Of a DNA stretch of 32,000 nt, positions 3,945-15,548 are shown in pieces. Each line of letters opens with the position of its first letter. Position 1 is the first letter of the stretch. The stretch comes from Candidatus Helarchaeota ASGARD archaeon Hel_GB_B (GTDB taxonomy: Archaea; Asgardarchaeota; Lokiarchaeia; Helarchaeales; HEL-GB-B). The stretch spans positions 30,001 through 62,000 of the forward strand of contig SUPR01000003.1 in assembly GCA_005191425.1 (NCBI GenBank), in the 5' to 3' direction. The notes under the pieces are model-generated. The model was not told where the DNA came from. It ran no database searches and saw only the letters and a program-made list of their open reading frames with translations. A program made the position numbers and the translations under genes.

Positions 3945-5111
3945 TTAAAAAGAAACAGGTCTACACCGTGCTGTCCACGAACTATTAAGTAAACTTGCGA
4001 AAAAGTCAATTTGATTTTCAGACTGTACTATTAACCCAGATACGCTCTTATTACTTCCAATTGGCGCAAACATTAAAATCTCCAAATCTTTATTGATAGC
4101 CCATAGGTCTTTTTCTGGATATAATTTAATCTCGATATTGTTCATAGAATTATATTTATTGAATAATTCTACGTGTTTTGAATTAGTTCGGTCAATGAAA
4201 GTCGCTAATTTAATGCGAATAGTACTTTTTAAGTTTTCTAAATTTAACTCTTCAATAAAATCAATGGTAGGAATAAAAATCATACCAGTCGATTTCAAAT
4301 CTTCAATCAGTCTTTTAATCCCTTCTATAGCACTAGCTTCTGTAAGTATTATATTTCCGCTATTTCCAGCAGGTATTACTTCCGCTTTTTCTCCTTCATA
4401 TTGTTGTAGTCTTTTTTCAAGTTCTGCAATTTTTATCTCTTTAATTTTAAGTTCTGTTTTTAAATTAACATCACCGTCAGCCAATTTTTCTTCTAAATCC
4501 CTAATAATCTTATCTTTTTCAAAGATTATTTTTTCTAATTCCTTAATTTTTTCTTTAAGTTCATCTAAAGCTGATCTTGAAATTAAATCTGAAGTTTGGG
4601 ACTTAACTTTACCTAATTCTATTTCTAAATCTCTAATTTTATTTGTCAATTCCTTGATTTTTTCTTCTCGCTCATTAATTATACTTTCAAATTTCTTCTC
4701 TTTTTCCGAAATCTCGTTTTTCATATCATAGATTTTATTTTTCAATAAAGAAGTCTGATTTTCCCATTCAGTATTAATTCTTAAAAGTTGCTCATTTTTA
4801 TCATTAATTTCCTGATTTGCAGATGTTAACTCTTTTTGTTGCGATATAATTGATACTTGTTGATCCCTTATGACACTATCTTGTTCAGTAATTGTAGATT
4901 GCTGCTCAGCAATTGTACTCTGTTGTTGCGTAATTATTTTTTGCTTTTCCTCATTTAATGCCTGTTCCTTCTTTAGAAGTTCCTCTAAATTCTGGACAGA
5001 ACTTTTTAAAGATGTGATAATTTCTTTTTGATCCTTTAATAATTTTTCCTGAATTAAAACTCTCTGTTTTATAGGTAAATTTTCAGTTGGGTCTGCCATT
5101 TTGAACACCAT
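3945..5111 (-). CDS. Long coiled-coil protein with a C-terminal globular (TrmB-effector/PLD-like?) domain
   Basis: About 240 aa of E/K/Q-rich heptads followed by a ~135-aa alpha/beta domain ending ...FFASLLNSSW. The fold assignment is from memory and tentative. Confidence 0.75.
   Translation of the reverse strand: MVFKMADPTENLPIKQRVLIQEKLLKDQKEIITSLKSSVQNLEELLKKEQALNEEKQKIITQQQSTIAEQQSTITEQDSVIRDQQVSIISQQKELTSANQEINDKNEQLLRINTEWENQTSLLKNKIYDMKNEISEKEKKFESIINEREEKIKELTNKIRDLEIELGKVKSQTSDLISRSALDELKEKIKELEKIIFEKDKIIRDLEEKLADGDVNLKTELKIKEIKIAELEKRLQQYEGEKAEVIPAGNSGNIILTEASAIEGIKRLIEDLKSTGMIFIPTIDFIEELNLENLKSTIRIKLATFIDRTNSKHVELFNKYNSMNNIEIKLYPEKDLWAINKDLEILMFAPIGSNKSVSGLIVQSENQIDFFASLLNSSWTARCRPVSF
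4862..4945. repeat. Imperfect 21-nt tandem repeat inside the coiled-coil gene (heptads QQSTIAE/QQSTITE/QDSVIRD/QQVSIIS)
   Basis: Units such as TCAGTAATTGTAGATTGCTGC and TCAGCAATTGTACTCTGTTGT recur at 21-nt spacing. Confidence 0.65.
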
Positions 5112-8506: not shown

Positions 8507-9163
8507 TTATTTTTCATGAGGTGGTCTAATAAAAATATAATATTTATCAGTATTTTTTAGTTCTATTAGAACTCGTTTCATAATCATAATATCTGGCTCT
8601 CCTATTTTTGAAACTCTTTCAGTTAAATCCTTGAAATTTTTAAATTTCGCTTTTTTGCGTTCATTAATAATATCCCACATTAATTTTTTACCAATACCTG
8701 GAAGTAGTTCTAATTGGTGTTTTCTAGTGGTGATAGGGCGTGAATTATTAAAAAAATTCACAAACTGTTCTTCATTATCTCTAATTATATTTAAAATAGT
8801 ATCTTCTAGTTCAAATTTAGCGTTAGCAGTTAATTCATCATATGAAATCCTTCCTTTAATATGGTCTATAATGTCTCTTTGTCCAGAACCAATATATAAT
8901 TTATCTCGTATTTTAATTTGGGATTTATATGACTTTCTTGGGACTAATTCTAGCAATGTAAAATAATTAATGCCGATAGACTGAATTATCGGTTCTGTTT
9001 TAAAAGATTTAGCACGAGATTCAGCATGACCGCGAGGTAAATAATCCAGTACAATGACATAATCTTCAAATTTTTTCATAGGTTGCTGTCGAAGTTGTTT
9101 ATTACCAATATATGTTTTATTATTCTTCTTGTGATTAAAATTATCTAAATTCTTACCCATCAT
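8507..9163 (-). CDS. DUF655 family putative nucleic-acid-binding protein
   Basis: EDYVIVLDYLP.G, Q.IG..YFTLLEL, ITTRKHQLELLPGIGKKLMW.I and F..F.DL.ERV. Conserved position after rpo4. The start could be the later Met (MKKFEDY). Confidence 0.92.
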   Translation of the reverse strand: MMGKNLDNFNHKKNNKTYIGNKQLRQQPMKKFEDYVIVLDYLPRGHAESRAKSFKTEPIIQSIGINYFTLLELVPRKSYKSQIKIRDKLYIGSGQRDIIDHIKGRISYDELTANAKFELEDTILNIIRDNEEQFVNFFNNSRPITTRKHQLELLPGIGKKLMWDIINERKKAKFKNFKDLTERVSKIGEPDIMIMKRVLIELKNTDKYYIFIRPPHEK

Positions 9164-9502
9164 CTCACCACTTGTTCATTTTAATCTAAAAAATTAGTTA
9201 TCTGTTCATCTTTTTTTTTGTAATTTTATCCTTTTCCCCTATATACATTTGTAGACCTATTTATCACTAAATCTATTAATTCATTTATATTTTCATTTAT
9301 GTTTTTTATTAATTTATTTAAAAATTTGATATTCATTGTGCATCAATTAATATTTTACACCAAATGATATAAAAATTTTTTATTAATAAAAAAATTATAA
9401 AAATAAATTTAACGAAGAACTATAATATTATTACTTTTTAAAAACTAGTGTATTAATTTAAGACCTATTTAGAGTTTTGTATTGACGCAAAAAATAAGTC
9501 TT

Positions 9503-9874
9503 TTATTCGTTCTCAATTTTTTCTTTATAAATTTGTATTAAATTTAGTAATTCCTCTTTTTGTTCATCTGAGAGTTTTATGGGGTCTTTTTTTAGAAATA
9601 TTTCTAATTCATCCACTAAACTGGGAAGGTATCTTAAATTAACAATTTGTGTCGCTGTATTAATTGACAGACCGAATCGTTGAACAATTTCATTTCTAAA
9701 TTTCAATGCATCTTCAAGTGATAATTTGCAAAATTCATTTACATAGTTATATGTCATTTTTTGAAGGTATGATAATTCTTCTGGATTATTTTTTGAACGA
9801 TTTTTTAATATTTCCTTTACTTCAGCTAAAGTTAATATCTCCTCACTAATAATTTTTTTACGAAAATTAATCAC
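9503..9874 (-). CDS. rpo4: RNA polymerase subunit Rpo4 (RpoF, Rpb4 homologue)
   Basis: KIISEEILTLAEVKEIL and ELSYLQK.T..Y...F.KLS.E.A. Located between rpl21e and DUF655. GTG start. Confidence 0.9.
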   Translation of the reverse strand: MINFRKKIISEEILTLAEVKEILKNRSKNNPEELSYLQKMTYNYVNEFCKLSLEDALKFRNEIVQRFGLSINTATQIVNLRYLPSLVDELEIFLKKDPIKLSDEQKEELLNLIQIYKEKIENE

Positions 9875-9911
9875 GACCTTTTTTTTAATTAAATTAGGAA
9901 TATTTTAAATC

Positions 9912-10226
9912 TTACAATTTTTGCAAGCGGAAATGTTCGGGCCGAATAATCAATGTTTTTACCCTGTTTCCATCTTTGACATTAATAACGTAAGCTCGAC
10001 CTCGTTGCCCGACTATAGTACCTGTTCTACCGTGGAATCTATAAAATGGTTGACCTTTATGTTGGCTTGGGTCAATAATTATATCTACTTTAGTACCAGG
10101 TGTATATTTATCGCGTAGTAATAAATACCGTAAACTTCGCACTTGGCCTTTTTGACGTACTTTTTTCTTATGAATTGTCCTAGTGTGTCTTGCTTTAAAT
10201 CCGTTTGATTTTTTCATGTAGACCAC
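9912..10226 (-). CDS. rpl21e: 50S ribosomal protein L21e
   Basis: KSNGFKARHTR, G.KVDIIIDPS.HKGQPF.RFHGRTGTIVGQRGRAY and LIIRPEHF. The true start is probably the ATG at 10217. Confidence 0.97.
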   Translation of the reverse strand: MVYMKKSNGFKARHTRTIHKKKVRQKGQVRSLRYLLLRDKYTPGTKVDIIIDPSQHKGQPFYRFHGRTGTIVGQRGRAYVINVKDGNRVKTLIIRPEHFRLQKL

Positions 10227-10364
10227 ACAATACCGAATTTATTTTTAATATTAAAGGATTATTTTTAAATCTTTTTTCATTATGAATTTTTTTATAAAAC
10301 ATTAATTCATTTTAAATTAATCCAAAATAAATCAATTGAAACTAAACTATTTATTCAAAAAAGA

Positions 10365-11738
10365 CTAGTCTATACTGATCGTATCAACAATTATAACATC
10401 TAATTCTAAGACATTACATTCAATATTCCCTAAACTCTCACTAACACTTGGGCGGGTTCTTCCATTGTCTCCAGAAATTAACTCTTTGATATAAGTACCT
10501 CCTTGAGATGTAATAATTGCAATAAACCCATAATCTGTAATTTCATCAATTTTAAATGAGTAAATTCTTTTTTTCCGAATTTTATTAACGCGTCTATGTA
10601 AAACTCGAAGTGGAGTCCTCTGTTCAATGATCACATTGGAAAATTTTTTTTCTAATTCATAAATTTGCTCGGGGTCTACTTTAGATTTAATTTCAATTTT
10701 AGCTCTATATGTTTTATTAACTAATTGAGAATTAGCTTTGATTTTTCTGACTCTATATTTATCAGAAAATTCTAAGTCTTTAATTATAATTTTATTTTCG
10801 GCGTATTCATTGACAACTTTTTCTACTTTTTTAAGGTCTATGAAACGTTTTTTAGGGGCTCTAATTTCTATAACAAATGGTCTACCTGTTCCTAGCATTA
10901 AAGCGTCAATATCTTCTCTACCTGCACCATGAAACTTAGCATCTGTGCCCTCACATATTTCAATTACTTTTTTTGTAATTAATTCTTCTATTGAAGTTTC
11001 ATATTTATAGCCTTTATAATTACATTCTTCACAACCTAGACCGTTACAATTTTTACAAATCCAATGTGTCTGTGGAATTCCTCGTATTAACTTTAAATAT
11101 CTTCCATATATAAATAATGGATTGATATTTAGTTCTATTTCGTCTTTAATAGTATTAACTACAGCTACTACTTCCGGATTATTAAATTCAACGAATTTTC
11201 CTTTTAAACCTTTTAAAACAATTTTTCCTACTTCTCTATTAAATTCTCCTTTAATAGTTTCTCCCCATTTTAATTGATATTTTGCTCTTAGCCTATCTTC
11301 ATTTTCGATTATTTCAGAGTTAAATTTACTACCAACTAAAAAATTATTAAATTGAACGGTTTCTAATTTTTCCTTAACCTTATCTGCATAATATGGGATC
11401 TTATTCATTATTCCTTTACAGATAGTACACCCCTTTTTAATTTCAATATTTATCCCAAATTTCTCAAGGGTTGTAACCGCGGGCTGAAACATTCCATTTT
11501 CTGCAATTTTCTTTATAATATCTATATTTTCATCTTGATCGCCTATATTATTTAGAATTTTACTATGCGTTTCCATTAAAAGATAAGATTTTAGTGATAG
11601 CCCTCTATCATAATTTGTAATCTTTCCACCTGTAATTAAAAGCGCAAATTGTCTACCAAGACAATTATTACATATAATGTTTTCTTGTAAAATCTTTTTA
11701 ACTGTTTCTATAATCATTAGGTGCACCAAATTATCCAA
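10365..11738 (-). CDS. pus10: tRNA pseudouridine(54/55) synthase Pus10
   Basis: N-terminal CxxCLGRQF, THUMP-like region, GRYLKL.RGIPQT, catalytic HGAGREDIDA and GGTYIKELISGD.GRT. The start may be the Met at codon 8. Confidence 0.96.
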   Translation of the reverse strand: MDNLVHLMIIETVKKILQENIICNNCLGRQFALLITGGKITNYDRGLSLKSYLLMETHSKILNNIGDQDENIDIIKKIAENGMFQPAVTTLEKFGINIEIKKGCTICKGIMNKIPYYADKVKEKLETVQFNNFLVGSKFNSEIIENEDRLRAKYQLKWGETIKGEFNREVGKIVLKGLKGKFVEFNNPEVVAVVNTIKDEIELNINPLFIYGRYLKLIRGIPQTHWICKNCNGLGCEECNYKGYKYETSIEELITKKVIEICEGTDAKFHGAGREDIDALMLGTGRPFVIEIRAPKKRFIDLKKVEKVVNEYAENKIIIKDLEFSDKYRVRKIKANSQLVNKTYRAKIEIKSKVDPEQIYELEKKFSNVIIEQRTPLRVLHRRVNKIRKKRIYSFKIDEITDYGFIAIITSQGGTYIKELISGDNGRTRPSVSESLGNIECNVLELDVIIVDTISID

Positions 11739-12054: not shown

Positions 12055-12627
12055 GTGATTAAAGAACTTATTAAAAATGTTAAAAATTTACTAAAAGAAC
12101 GTGGATTTGAGAATATTAAATCTGAAGAATCTTCAGATAAAGGCAAAATAATAATTAGGGCCGAATATAATCCATCTAAAAGCAGTAAACCAGAAAGTGT
12201 AATGGTCTATGTTTGGGACCCCGAAGAATCTGTCGGAGTTCAAGATGCAAGGGAAATCGTTAAAATATTTAAAAACACAAAAATAAAAAGACGATTTCTT
12301 GTTGGAGGTTCAAAATTCACTAGGATGGCTAGGATGCACTTAGAAGAAAATAAAGTGGAATATATTCCAACTGAATTAGTAATGTTAAATGTGTTAGAAC
12401 ATGAATTGGTCCCAAAACACAGAATTTTAGATAAAGAAGAGGCTGAAAAGTTATTATCAAAGCTAAAAATAGACAAATCTCAATTACCAAGTATTCTAGT
12501 TAATGATCCTGTTGCAAAAATAATTGGTGCGCGTGAAGGCGATATTATAGAAATAATTAGAGAAAGTAAAACTGCTGGAACATCAATAGCTTACAGACAT
12601 GTGATAAGAAATATAGAAGGAATTTAG
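12055..12627 (+). CDS. rpo5: RNA polymerase subunit Rpo5/Rpb5, full-length two-domain eukaryote-type form (190 aa)
   Basis: C-terminal HELVPKHRIL...QLP.I...DPVA...GA..GD.I.I.R.S.TAG...AYR.V (RpoH signature) preceded by ~110 aa matching the Rpb5 N-terminal jaw domain pattern (LLKERGF, ESVGVQD, RFLVGG.KFT..AR). Confidence 0.93.
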   Translation: MIKELIKNVKNLLKERGFENIKSEESSDKGKIIIRAEYNPSKSSKPESVMVYVWDPEESVGVQDAREIVKIFKNTKIKRRFLVGGSKFTRMARMHLEENKVEYIPTELVMLNVLEHELVPKHRILDKEEAEKLLSKLKIDKSQLPSILVNDPVAKIIGAREGDIIEIIRESKTAGTSIAYRHVIRNIEGI

Positions 12628-12672: not shown

Positions 12673-13554
12673 TTATTTAAATTCGTCTGCTATTAATGGC
12701 GCTACACTAACTTTAGAGCATTCATTGGGTATTGTATCTGTCCCTATAACTTCTTTGGCGCCAGTTTTGTAAAGTTTAAGTTTTGAATTACCAATAAGTA
12801 AAGTGTGAGTAGCACAAATATAAATATCTAAAGCACCTTGTGACTTTAAAATCTCGATTGCTTTGACCATAGTACCACCAGTAGAAATAATATCATCAAT
12901 TATTATTATATTTTTATTTTTTACATTTAAATCTTTTATTTTAGTCGTAACTTCACCGGTTGTCAAATCTCTAACTTTTTCTAAATATGAAAAATTACAA
13001 TTTAAAATATCTGCAATAATCTTAGCTCTTGGAGTCGCTGATTTATCAGGTGCGAGACAAAATACATTCTCAATCTTCATTTTTCTAAAGTAATCTCCAA
13101 ATAACTTCATAGCGCTTATACTTTTTGCATTTCCATCAAAAAAATCGAGAATAATTTCTGAATGTATGTCCAATGTTAACACCTTTTTTAGTAGATTTCC
13201 GCAGATACTTTTAATAACTGTTGCAATTACTTTTGCACTCAATGCTTCTCCTACTTTAAATCTCTTATCTTGTCTGCTATAGGCAAAATAAGGGATGACT
13301 ATAGAAATACTTTTAGGTTTTAACTCCTTTAAAGCATCTAAGATTAAAAATAGTTGAATAATACGCTGATTCTGGTCAGGAAAAGTTGTCTGAATGACTA
13401 ATACATCTTCATCTTTTACTTCGCCATCAATTTTTATATATTCTTCTCCGTCTGGAAATTTTTTAAAAAAAACATCAACAATTTTTGAATTTTTAATTAA
13501 ATTCGCCACTTTTACTCCAAGAATTTGAGATGCTGGTCCTGGTATTACAATCAT
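12673..13554 (-). CDS. prs: Ribose-phosphate pyrophosphokinase
   Basis: FPDGE, IPYFAYSRQDK, LDIHS and the PRPP-binding motif IIDDIISTGGT. Confidence 0.96.
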   Translation of the reverse strand: MIVIPGPASQILGVKVANLIKNSKIVDVFFKKFPDGEEYIKIDGEVKDEDVLVIQTTFPDQNQRIIQLFLILDALKELKPKSISIVIPYFAYSRQDKRFKVGEALSAKVIATVIKSICGNLLKKVLTLDIHSEIILDFFDGNAKSISAMKLFGDYFRKMKIENVFCLAPDKSATPRAKIIADILNCNFSYLEKVRDLTTGEVTTKIKDLNVKNKNIIIIDDIISTGGTMVKAIEILKSQGALDIYICATHTLLIGNSKLKLYKTGAKEVIGTDTIPNECSKVSVAPLIADEFK

Positions 13555-14213: not shown

Positions 14214-14765
14214 ATGTCCGAGATTTTTTTTGCTAAATATTATAAGTTTTATCGGTATAGAAAAGAATTGAAGGAAATTGATTCTAAATTTACAGTACCT
14301 AATGGATTTAAAATTAAAGAACTGAATCCGAATGAAGATTATGAAAAATTTAAATCAGCATGGCTAAAAATTTATTCCAAAATTCTACCTGAACCTTATA
14401 TTAAATTCAAAAAAGAAGATCTTCTAAAATATCCAAAGACTTTTGTTCTCGAAAATTCAAATGATGAAATAGTCGGTTTTATTGTCTGTTATATAAAGGA
14501 AAAAGAAAAAATGGGTAAAATTCTTAGAATTGGAGTGCAAGAAAATTACAGAAAAAAAGGATTTGGTCTATTATTATATCACAAAGGTTGCGAGTACTTC
14601 CTTCAAAACAAAATTACTAATATTTATTTTGATGTTTATGAAGACGACCTTGGATTATCTAAGCTTGCAAAAAAGGCTGGCTTTGAAAAAGAAGAAGAAT
14701 TCTTTATAACAATCGATGACCCAGTTGAAAATTTTATAAATTTAAGTACCATAATGTCATTATAA
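14214..14765 (+). CDS. GNAT family N-acetyltransferase
   Basis: Acetyl-CoA motif A (IGVQENYRKKGFG) and motif B-like ..KKAGF.. Confidence 0.85.
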   Translation: MSEIFFAKYYKFYRYRKELKEIDSKFTVPNGFKIKELNPNEDYEKFKSAWLKIYSKILPEPYIKFKKEDLLKYPKTFVLENSNDEIVGFIVCYIKEKEKMGKILRIGVQENYRKKGFGLLLYHKGCEYFLQNKITNIYFDVYEDDLGLSKLAKKAGFEKEEEFFITIDDPVENFINLSTIMSL

Positions 14766-14771
14766 AGGTCG

Positions 14772-15548
14772 ATGGATTTGAAAATAGTCTTCCATAAAAA
14801 ATTTTTTAATGTCTATACAAATGATCCAGCAGCAAAATCTGGAAGATTGGAACCAATTATAAAAGAATTAAAAAGGCACCCTTCTGAATATGAAATTATC
14901 GAGCCAAAACCTGCTACTAAGGAAGATATTCTTCGCGCTCATACATTAGGACATTACAATGACATTAAAACAACTGATAATATTCTTGACTATGCACTGC
15001 TCGCAGCTGGTGGTGCAATAGCCGCTGCTGAACTTGCTTATGAAAATTACCCTACATTTGCTGTAATTAGACCTCCTGGGCACCATGCTTCATCAGATAG
15101 TTGTTGGGGCTTTTGTTGGTTTAATAATATGTCTATTTCTCTCTTAAAATTACATTCAGAAAATAAAATCAAATCTGCTTTTATATTAGATTTTGATATG
15201 CATTTCGGAGATGGGAATGTCAATATTCTTAGAGAGAATAAGCATCTAATAAAAACTGAAATTCTCAATCCAATAAGTCAAACCGAACAAGATTATCTGG
15301 AAGAAATAAATAATGCCTTTAACAACGCTGGAAAATATGATATCCTAGCAGCATCTGCAGGATTTGATGAGTATATTAAAGATTGGGGCGGAAAATTAAG
15401 TACTAATGCATACAATCAAATTGGGAAGCTAATGAAAGATTTTGCAGAAGATAAATGTAATGGTAAAAGATTTGGGATATTAGAAGGTGGATATTATACA
15501 AAAGATCTTGGAATAAATGTTAATTCTTTTTGTCAAGGTTTTAAATGA
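14772..15548 (+). CDS. Zn-dependent histone-deacetylase-family (AcuC/APAH-like) deacetylase
   Basis: RPPGHHA, GFCWFNN, DFDMHFGDG, SAGFD and LEGGY. Starts 6 nt after the GNAT stop. Confidence 0.93.
   Translation: MDLKIVFHKKFFNVYTNDPAAKSGRLEPIIKELKRHPSEYEIIEPKPATKEDILRAHTLGHYNDIKTTDNILDYALLAAGGAIAAAELAYENYPTFAVIRPPGHHASSDSCWGFCWFNNMSISLLKLHSENKIKSAFILDFDMHFGDGNVNILRENKHLIKTEILNPISQTEQDYLEEINNAFNNAGKYDILAASAGFDEYIKDWGGKLSTNAYNQIGKLMKDFAEDKCNGKRFGILEGGYYTKDLGINVNSFCQGFK

Follow-up and report, generated by a model that had tools for sequence, protein, structure and literature searches.

The eukaryotic RNA polymerase subunit Rpb5 (RPABC1; POLR2E, yeast ABC27; PDB 1dzf, 7vba_E, 8uhd_E, 7eu0_E) is shared by Pol I, II, and III and joins an N-terminal module (Pfam RNA_pol_Rpb5_N, PF03871) to a C-terminal globe (Pfam RNA_pol_Rpb5_C, PF01191). 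The N-terminal module belongs to the PD-(D/E)XK nuclease-fold family but lacks an active site, a placement also found in SCOP, and the survey that describes it assigns the module to Eukaryota (PMC3424549). In yeast Rpb5, helix alpha-1 ends in an invariant DRGY motif whose R26 is essential (R26E is lethal), while H147, P151, D182, R200, and R212 of the C-terminal domain contact Rpb1 (PMC1802627). The N-module has been described as eukaryotic, and archaeal RpoH as a C-terminal domain only, without an N-terminal extension (PMC1802627, PMC3906176). Canonical archaeal Rpo5 (i.e., RpoH) is accordingly short (77–84 aa in PDB 1hmj, 4qiw_H, 7ok0_H, and 8cro_H), and its gene lies directly upstream of rpoB. 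In a 2026 survey covering the small subunits of archaeal polymerases, which modelled Asgard Rpo5, the Rpo5/Rpb5 passages describe no long form (PMC13257274), and we found no report of a two-domain archaeal Rpo5 in the open full-text literature (subscription journals were outside the scope of this search). Rpo13 of Sulfolobales, another archaeal polymerase protein, is described as small, unrelated, and the product of its own gene.

Here, we analyzed a 32,000-nucleotide stretch of DNA (the window; ~27% G+C) from contig C118 of a Helarchaeales (Asgard) genome, a 3.54-Mb metagenome-assembled genome (MAG) of 182 contigs that is 93.7% complete with 4.9% contamination. The window holds an intact 190-aa open reading frame that had been predicted from the DNA letters to encode a two-domain, eukaryote-style Rpb5, and the frame lies where it was predicted:

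12055..12627, plus strand: rpo5/rpoH gene, 190 aa, GTG start, stop codon included
12055..12378, plus strand: predicted N-terminal jaw-like domain (residues 1–108), putatively an inactivated Mrr_cat / PD-(D/E)XK fold
12388..12603, plus strand: Rpb5_C / RpoH globular domain (residues 112–183), PF01191 and NF007129
11739..12054, no strand assigned: very AT-rich 316-bp intergenic region between the divergent pus10 and rpo5 genes, presumed promoter region

The evidence below makes it very probable that the product of this gene is the cell's Rpo5 (RpoH), in a long form resembling Rpb5 whose C-terminal globe sits on Rpo1 and whose dead-nuclease domain sits at the lower jaw. On sequence grounds, we regard the protein as a new archaeal variant of Rpb5 and as a real RNA polymerase subunit.

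The C-terminal half of the protein is readily recognized. Residues 112–183 match Pfam PF01191 far above the model's cut-off (E = 3.1e-31; 107.4 bits, cut-off 23.5), and the protein also passes the NCBIfam RpoH equivalog model NF007129 (108.5 bits, cut-off 83). This domain is 50–58% identical to the canonical archaeal subunits of known structure and superposes on them with an rmsd of 1.3–1.5 Å. The five residues that contact Rpb1 in yeast Rpb5 correspond here to H116, P120, D151, R169, and R181 (an offset of 31 to yeast numbering, which agrees with the alignment to 1dzf, where 181 aligns with 212), and none of the five varies in any archaeal or eukaryotic row of our alignment (A1). These data suggest that the C-terminal globe binds the large subunit Rpo1, like its counterparts in all archaeal and eukaryotic enzymes. 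Unlike the canonical archaeal subunit, the Helarchaeales protein has an N-terminal domain and its gene lies away from rpoB. The original prediction was right that canonical Rpo5 is short and lacks the jaw domain: measured against the solved chains of 77–84 aa, ~108 extra N-terminal residues are present here.

We examined those extra residues in profile searches. Pfam Rpb5_N (PF03871), the model by which the predicted jaw domain was to be recognized, failed to match the protein at E ≤ 1, the gene in a genome-wide search, or any of seven Helarchaeales N-domains. Instead, the N-domain passes the Pfam model Mrr_cat (PF04471) with 24.6–26.5 bits (cut-off 21). This model matches the N-domains of all seven Helarchaeales proteins (best E = 6.5e-8) and reaches 50 bits in other Asgard Rpo5 proteins. 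By contrast, direct alignment to eukaryotic proteins bore out the similarity to Rpb5. Phmmer alignments to human and Arabidopsis RPB5 run from residue 45–50 to residue 183, across both domains, with a single gap of 4–5 residues, and the four motif pairs listed in the original prediction all recur in the phmmer alignment to human/plant RPB5 and in alignment A1. One of these, ERGF at residues 15–18, corresponds to yeast DRGY, so that R16 is the counterpart of R26. R16 is invariant in A1 and in a second alignment of 17 archaeal N-domains (A4), and G17 is nearly so in A1. Conservation among archaeal N-domains falls on R16-G17, where the first helix ends, and on G61-V62 and T89.

The predicted fold of the N-domain is likewise that of both Rpb5 and Mrr-type nucleases. 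We modelled the N-domain alone with AF2 from alignment A4, which contains no eukaryotic rows (pLDDT 83), and compared the model with 48,161 representative chains using VIA-align. The leading matches were as follows:

1y88, AF1548 (an Mrr_cat protein): Z 10.8, rmsd 3.2 Å, 100 residues
2vld_B, NucS: Z 9.4, rmsd 3.3 Å, 97 residues
8q3b_E, ASFV RPB5 (rank 3): Z 9.2, rmsd 2.6 Å, 100 residues
7eu0_E, Arabidopsis NRPB5 (rank 4): Z 9.0, rmsd 3.0 Å, 99 residues

The modelled N-domain thus superposes on Rpb5 N-domains over ~100 residues at Z ~9, in line with the eukaryote-type jaw that had been proposed. Foldseek searches with the isolated N-domain ranked nucleases first (EndoMS, MspJI, and AF1548), with Rpb5 chains from rank 15. 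A full-length model (pLDDT 83) matched eukaryotic Rpb5 chains with TM scores of 0.73–0.79 over ~205 columns, a comparison to be read in light of the three eukaryotic rows in its input alignment and the Rpb5 structures in AlphaFold's training set. The original prediction had treated an Rpb5 N-domain and a generic Mrr-type nuclease as exclusive outcomes. The N-domain superposes on Rpb5-N, yet scores with Mrr_cat and not with Rpb5_N; this choice is a false dichotomy because Rpb5-N is itself a PD-(D/E)XK fold (PMC3424549).

Profile-profile comparisons placed the archaeal domain between these two families. With hhalign, archaeal N-domains matched free Mrr_cat proteins (i.e., those outside polymerase subunits) with a probability of 97.5% and E = 4.9e-12, and matched eukaryotic Rpb5 with a probability of 93% and E = 3.5e-7 over 85 columns, while eukaryotic Rpb5 and Mrr_cat proteins barely matched each other (probability 7%, E = 0.005). 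All three alignments share one register, and the archaeal N-domain is thus a sequence intermediate between Mrr_cat and Rpb5-N. We also searched 1.84 billion representative proteins with a profile of the Helarchaeales N-domain. This search returned only 38 proteins at E ≤ 0.001. Rpb5_C is present in 19 of them and Pfam Rpb5_N in three, and a few are true Mrr_cat proteins. Two of the proteins gathered in this work, P0031 (349 aa) and P0035 (456 aa), have three separate N-domain profile matches each, which represent repeated jaw-type domains; P0035 looks eukaryotic.

The shared fold raises the question of whether archaea and eukaryotes acquired this domain once or twice. A separate fusion of an Mrr-type domain to RpoH in archaea, with convergent use of a common fold, would account for the fact that the archaeal N-domain is nearer to Mrr_cat than to Rpb5-N by hhalign, that it passes the Mrr_cat model and not Rpb5_N, and that AF1548 and NucS match its fold at least as closely as Rpb5. 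Several results argue against two fusions, however. The order of the two domains and the junction between them are the same in both groups, as reflected in the single phmmer alignment that crosses both domains with a gap of only a few residues. Both groups keep the arginine of the (D/E)RG(Y/F) motif without exception, and the eukaryotic domain is far nearer to the archaeal one than to Mrr proteins. Furthermore, in an N-domain tree built by maximum likelihood (LG+C20, 107 columns, long branches, without an independent root) and comprising 34 archaeal rows, 9 eukaryotic rows, and 13 free Mrr_cat rows (5 metagenomic and 8 from Asgard genomes), one branch (95/89) separates the 43 Rpo5-N/Rpb5-N rows from the 13 free Mrr_cat rows, a split that is drawn from 107 columns and a narrow sampling of Mrr proteins. 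The tree favours a single recruitment of the N-domain on data that are thin (few columns, long branches, narrow Mrr sampling). Weighing these points, we consider an independent archaeal fusion unlikely.

The eukaryotic N-domains form one clade in this tree (98/86), which the tree places beside no particular archaeal group save for one protein, P0028. This protein adjoins the eukaryotic N-domains in both trees that we built (96/82 and 91/81), a position to which long-branch effects may contribute. P0028 (178 aa, from a 90.5-kb contig) is a two-domain Rpo5 with an archaeal-type C-domain, and the closest match to it in 400 Asgard genomes shares only 39% identity.

We favour, with reasonable though not strong confidence, a history in which the Rpb5 jaw has an archaeal origin that predates eukaryotes. 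RpoH would have captured an Mrr-type nuclease domain whose active site was then lost, and a less-diverged, basic version would persist in Helarchaeales, many other Asgard lineages, and Bathyarchaeia. We infer that a single fusion predating eukaryotes was the source of both archaeal and eukaryotic N-domains. If so, eukaryotes inherited a two-domain subunit, and lineages with a short rpoH (such as a sister family described below) either lost the N-domain or never had it. This part of Pol I, II, and III would then have originated in archaea, with the archaeal N-domain as the sequence link that has been missing between Rpb5-N and Mrr nucleases.

The match to Mrr_cat could also mean that the N-domain is still an active nuclease, whether tethered to the polymerase or acting independently (e.g., in defence or repair), and the scores above the cut-off here and of 50 bits in other Asgard Rpo5 proteins are what such an enzyme would give. 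The active site argues otherwise. Where Mrr proteins have the signature DGGxD...VQCK, this protein has DKGKII...VYVW, and the columns of the second block vary among orthologues (VLIL, VHCT, VAW, and VVWI). Because these catalytic-block columns vary freely, no acidic/lysine set is conserved, and the metal-binding residues D...(D/E/Q)xK are absent from the N-domain in alignments to Mrr proteins and orthologues. The positions that are conserved are structural and common to Rpb5. Thus, like Mrr_cat endonucleases, NucS/EndoMS, and MspJI, the domain has the fold and a recognizable profile, but unlike Mrr_cat nucleases it lacks the catalytic residues, is fused to a polymerase subunit, and falls apart from them in the tree. 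An active nuclease is highly improbable, and the N-domain is instead predicted to be an Mrr-type nuclease fold without catalytic activity, with homology to the jaw half of eukaryotic Rpb5.

By this account, residues 1–108 would derive from a restriction-endonuclease domain of the Mrr type whose catalytic residues have been lost, and they most likely lengthen the lower jaw beside downstream DNA, by analogy with the Rpb5 N-module in Pol I, II, and III. We infer from these comparisons that the protein assembles into the polymerase, that its N-domain takes this position, and that it may bind DNA or factors. The protein resembles eukaryotic Rpb5 in having the same two-domain order, an apparently inactive PD-(D/E)XK N-domain, an Rpb5_C globe, the (D/E)RG(Y/F) arginine, and the five Rpb1-contact residues. 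It differs in length (190 aa versus 205–215 aa), being shorter because its N-domain lacks the eukaryotic insertions, in missing Pfam Rpb5_N while passing Mrr_cat, and in its host, an archaeon with a single polymerase. It also differs in charge: Helarchaeales N-domains are basic (net charge +5 to +10, pI 9.5–10.0; 9.5 for the protein in the window), whereas the sampled eukaryotic domains have a median pI of 5.9. This basic character fits contact with DNA but may in part reflect the lysine-rich proteome of an AT-rich genome. The jaw role (i.e., downstream DNA and factor docking) could become testable in a one-polymerase system.

We then considered how widely the long form is distributed. It is present at 184–190 aa in all seven Helarchaeales genomes searched. 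Across 400 Asgard genomes, the Helarchaeales N-profile matched 175, nearly all in open frames of ~185–230 aa. At the loci that we opened in other Asgard families, Rpb5_C lay in the same frame in nine of nine cases, some as tandem pairs, and none of the nine was beside rpoB. In the sister families within this class, only the C-domain was matched. One such family carries a short rpoH (~88–104 codons by the stop-to-stop frame) directly upstream of rpoB at five of five loci. Clusters named Bathyarchaeia contain forms of 182–191 aa.

Additional copies and an unexpected host name also came to light. One Helarchaeales genome (G005) has two long rpo5 genes ~104 kb apart on contig C1 (149786–150331 and 253845–254387), and tandem pairs of long copies occur in several genomes of another Asgard family (L040 and L042). 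A Helarchaeales-type two-domain rpo5 is also found in DATKTP010000124.1, a record titled with a bacterial name (Candidatus Deferrimicrobium sp.) that is probably mis-binned.

This distribution bears on whether the gene could have been transferred into archaea from a eukaryote or a giant virus. Giant viruses do have two-domain Rpb5 homologues, as the match to ASFV (Z 9.2) illustrates, and several of the homologues look viral or protist. Transfer is nevertheless very hard to credit: the C-domain scores as an archaeal RpoH equivalog, the N-domain retains more Mrr_cat sequence than any eukaryotic copy, the long form is widespread in Asgard families and Bathyarchaeia, and the eukaryotic rows form one derived clade that does not enclose the archaeal rows.

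The long form is probably under-annotated, because clusters at 90% identity mix proteins of 182–191 aa with NCBI products of 81–91 aa, one of which starts at an internal Met. The public "subunit H" products that share clusters with long forms are P0093, P0080, P0081, P0089, and P0092. Of these, P0093 (81 aa) starts at the Met matching Met110, which opens the C-domain. The short products are likely shortened gene calls that hide an N-domain. A search for short RpoH relatives returned only three proteins.

For the gene in the window, the reading frame itself is well supported. It is uninterrupted, and identity is 39–76% across the seven genomes of the order and metagenome proteins. The orthologue of a congener (i.e., from the same genus) begins with ATG at the matching place, one codon further in, and there is no ATG, GTG, or TTG among the 10 in-frame codons before the GTG start. 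Compared with the congener, the N-domain has a dN of 0.207 and the C-domain a dN of 0.201 (dS was saturated, so only dN values were used), and these near-equal values indicate similar purifying selection on both halves. Hence, although the start is a GTG and some public records give only the short product, a mis-called start or a chimeric assembly joining an unrelated frame to a short rpoH has next to no chance of explaining one unbroken, conserved frame with a matching congener start and an N-domain as constrained as its partner.

We also asked whether the gene is the only Rpo5 of its genome, which the original prediction had left open alongside the option of a paralogue. It is the sole Rpb5_C match in this 93.7% complete MAG, which bears out a sole copy and leaves no paralogue; the same gene is also the sole Mrr_cat match. 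The original prediction had further stressed its position outside the rpoH-rpoB-rpoA operon. It is true that rpo5 is not beside rpoB, which lies on another contig; this says little, however, in a genome where rpoB and rpoA are likewise isolated. The rpoB gene is unsplit (1121 aa) and lies alone on contig C131 (4941–8306). The slot upstream of it holds no rpoH, and an ISL3-type transposase-like fragment that scores below the Pfam cut-off is found there (4050–4559); downstream are an RFC small subunit gene, an AIR-synthase-like gene, and cdc6/orc1. A short rpoH before rpoB was found in the sister family but not in this genome. The rpoA gene occupies one open frame (2317 aa; contig C111, minus strand, ~10.8–17.5 kb). 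This frame contains Rpb1_1 and Rpb1_5 together, with the Rpb1_5 match in two pieces ~1.5 kb apart, and it appears to encode A' and A'' fused into an Rpb1-like subunit, probably interrupted by at least one intein. The classical rpoH-rpoB-rpoA operon is absent (dissolved) in this genome.

The gene after rpo5 is, as had been predicted, a convergent prs (ribose-phosphate pyrophosphokinase, 12673–13554, minus strand). Upstream and divergent from rpo5, a minus-strand group at 8507–11738 comprises pus10 together with rpl21e, rpo4/rpoF, and a DUF655 gene, the last three of which make up a conserved archaeal cluster. Within this group, rpo4/rpoF is a second polymerase subunit gene and lies 2.2 kb from rpo5. 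The intergenic region between pus10 and rpo5 is ~85% A+T, a base composition at which TATA-like strings occur everywhere. The flanking genes for Pus10, Prs, and DnaJ are shared only within the genus and are found at none of the other Helarchaeales loci; since flanking genes are conserved only within the genus, there is no operon logic for rpo5. Further along the plus strand (14214–15548), a GNAT acetyltransferase gene is followed after 7 bp by a histone-deacetylase-family gene, and the two may form an acetylation/deacetylation pair.
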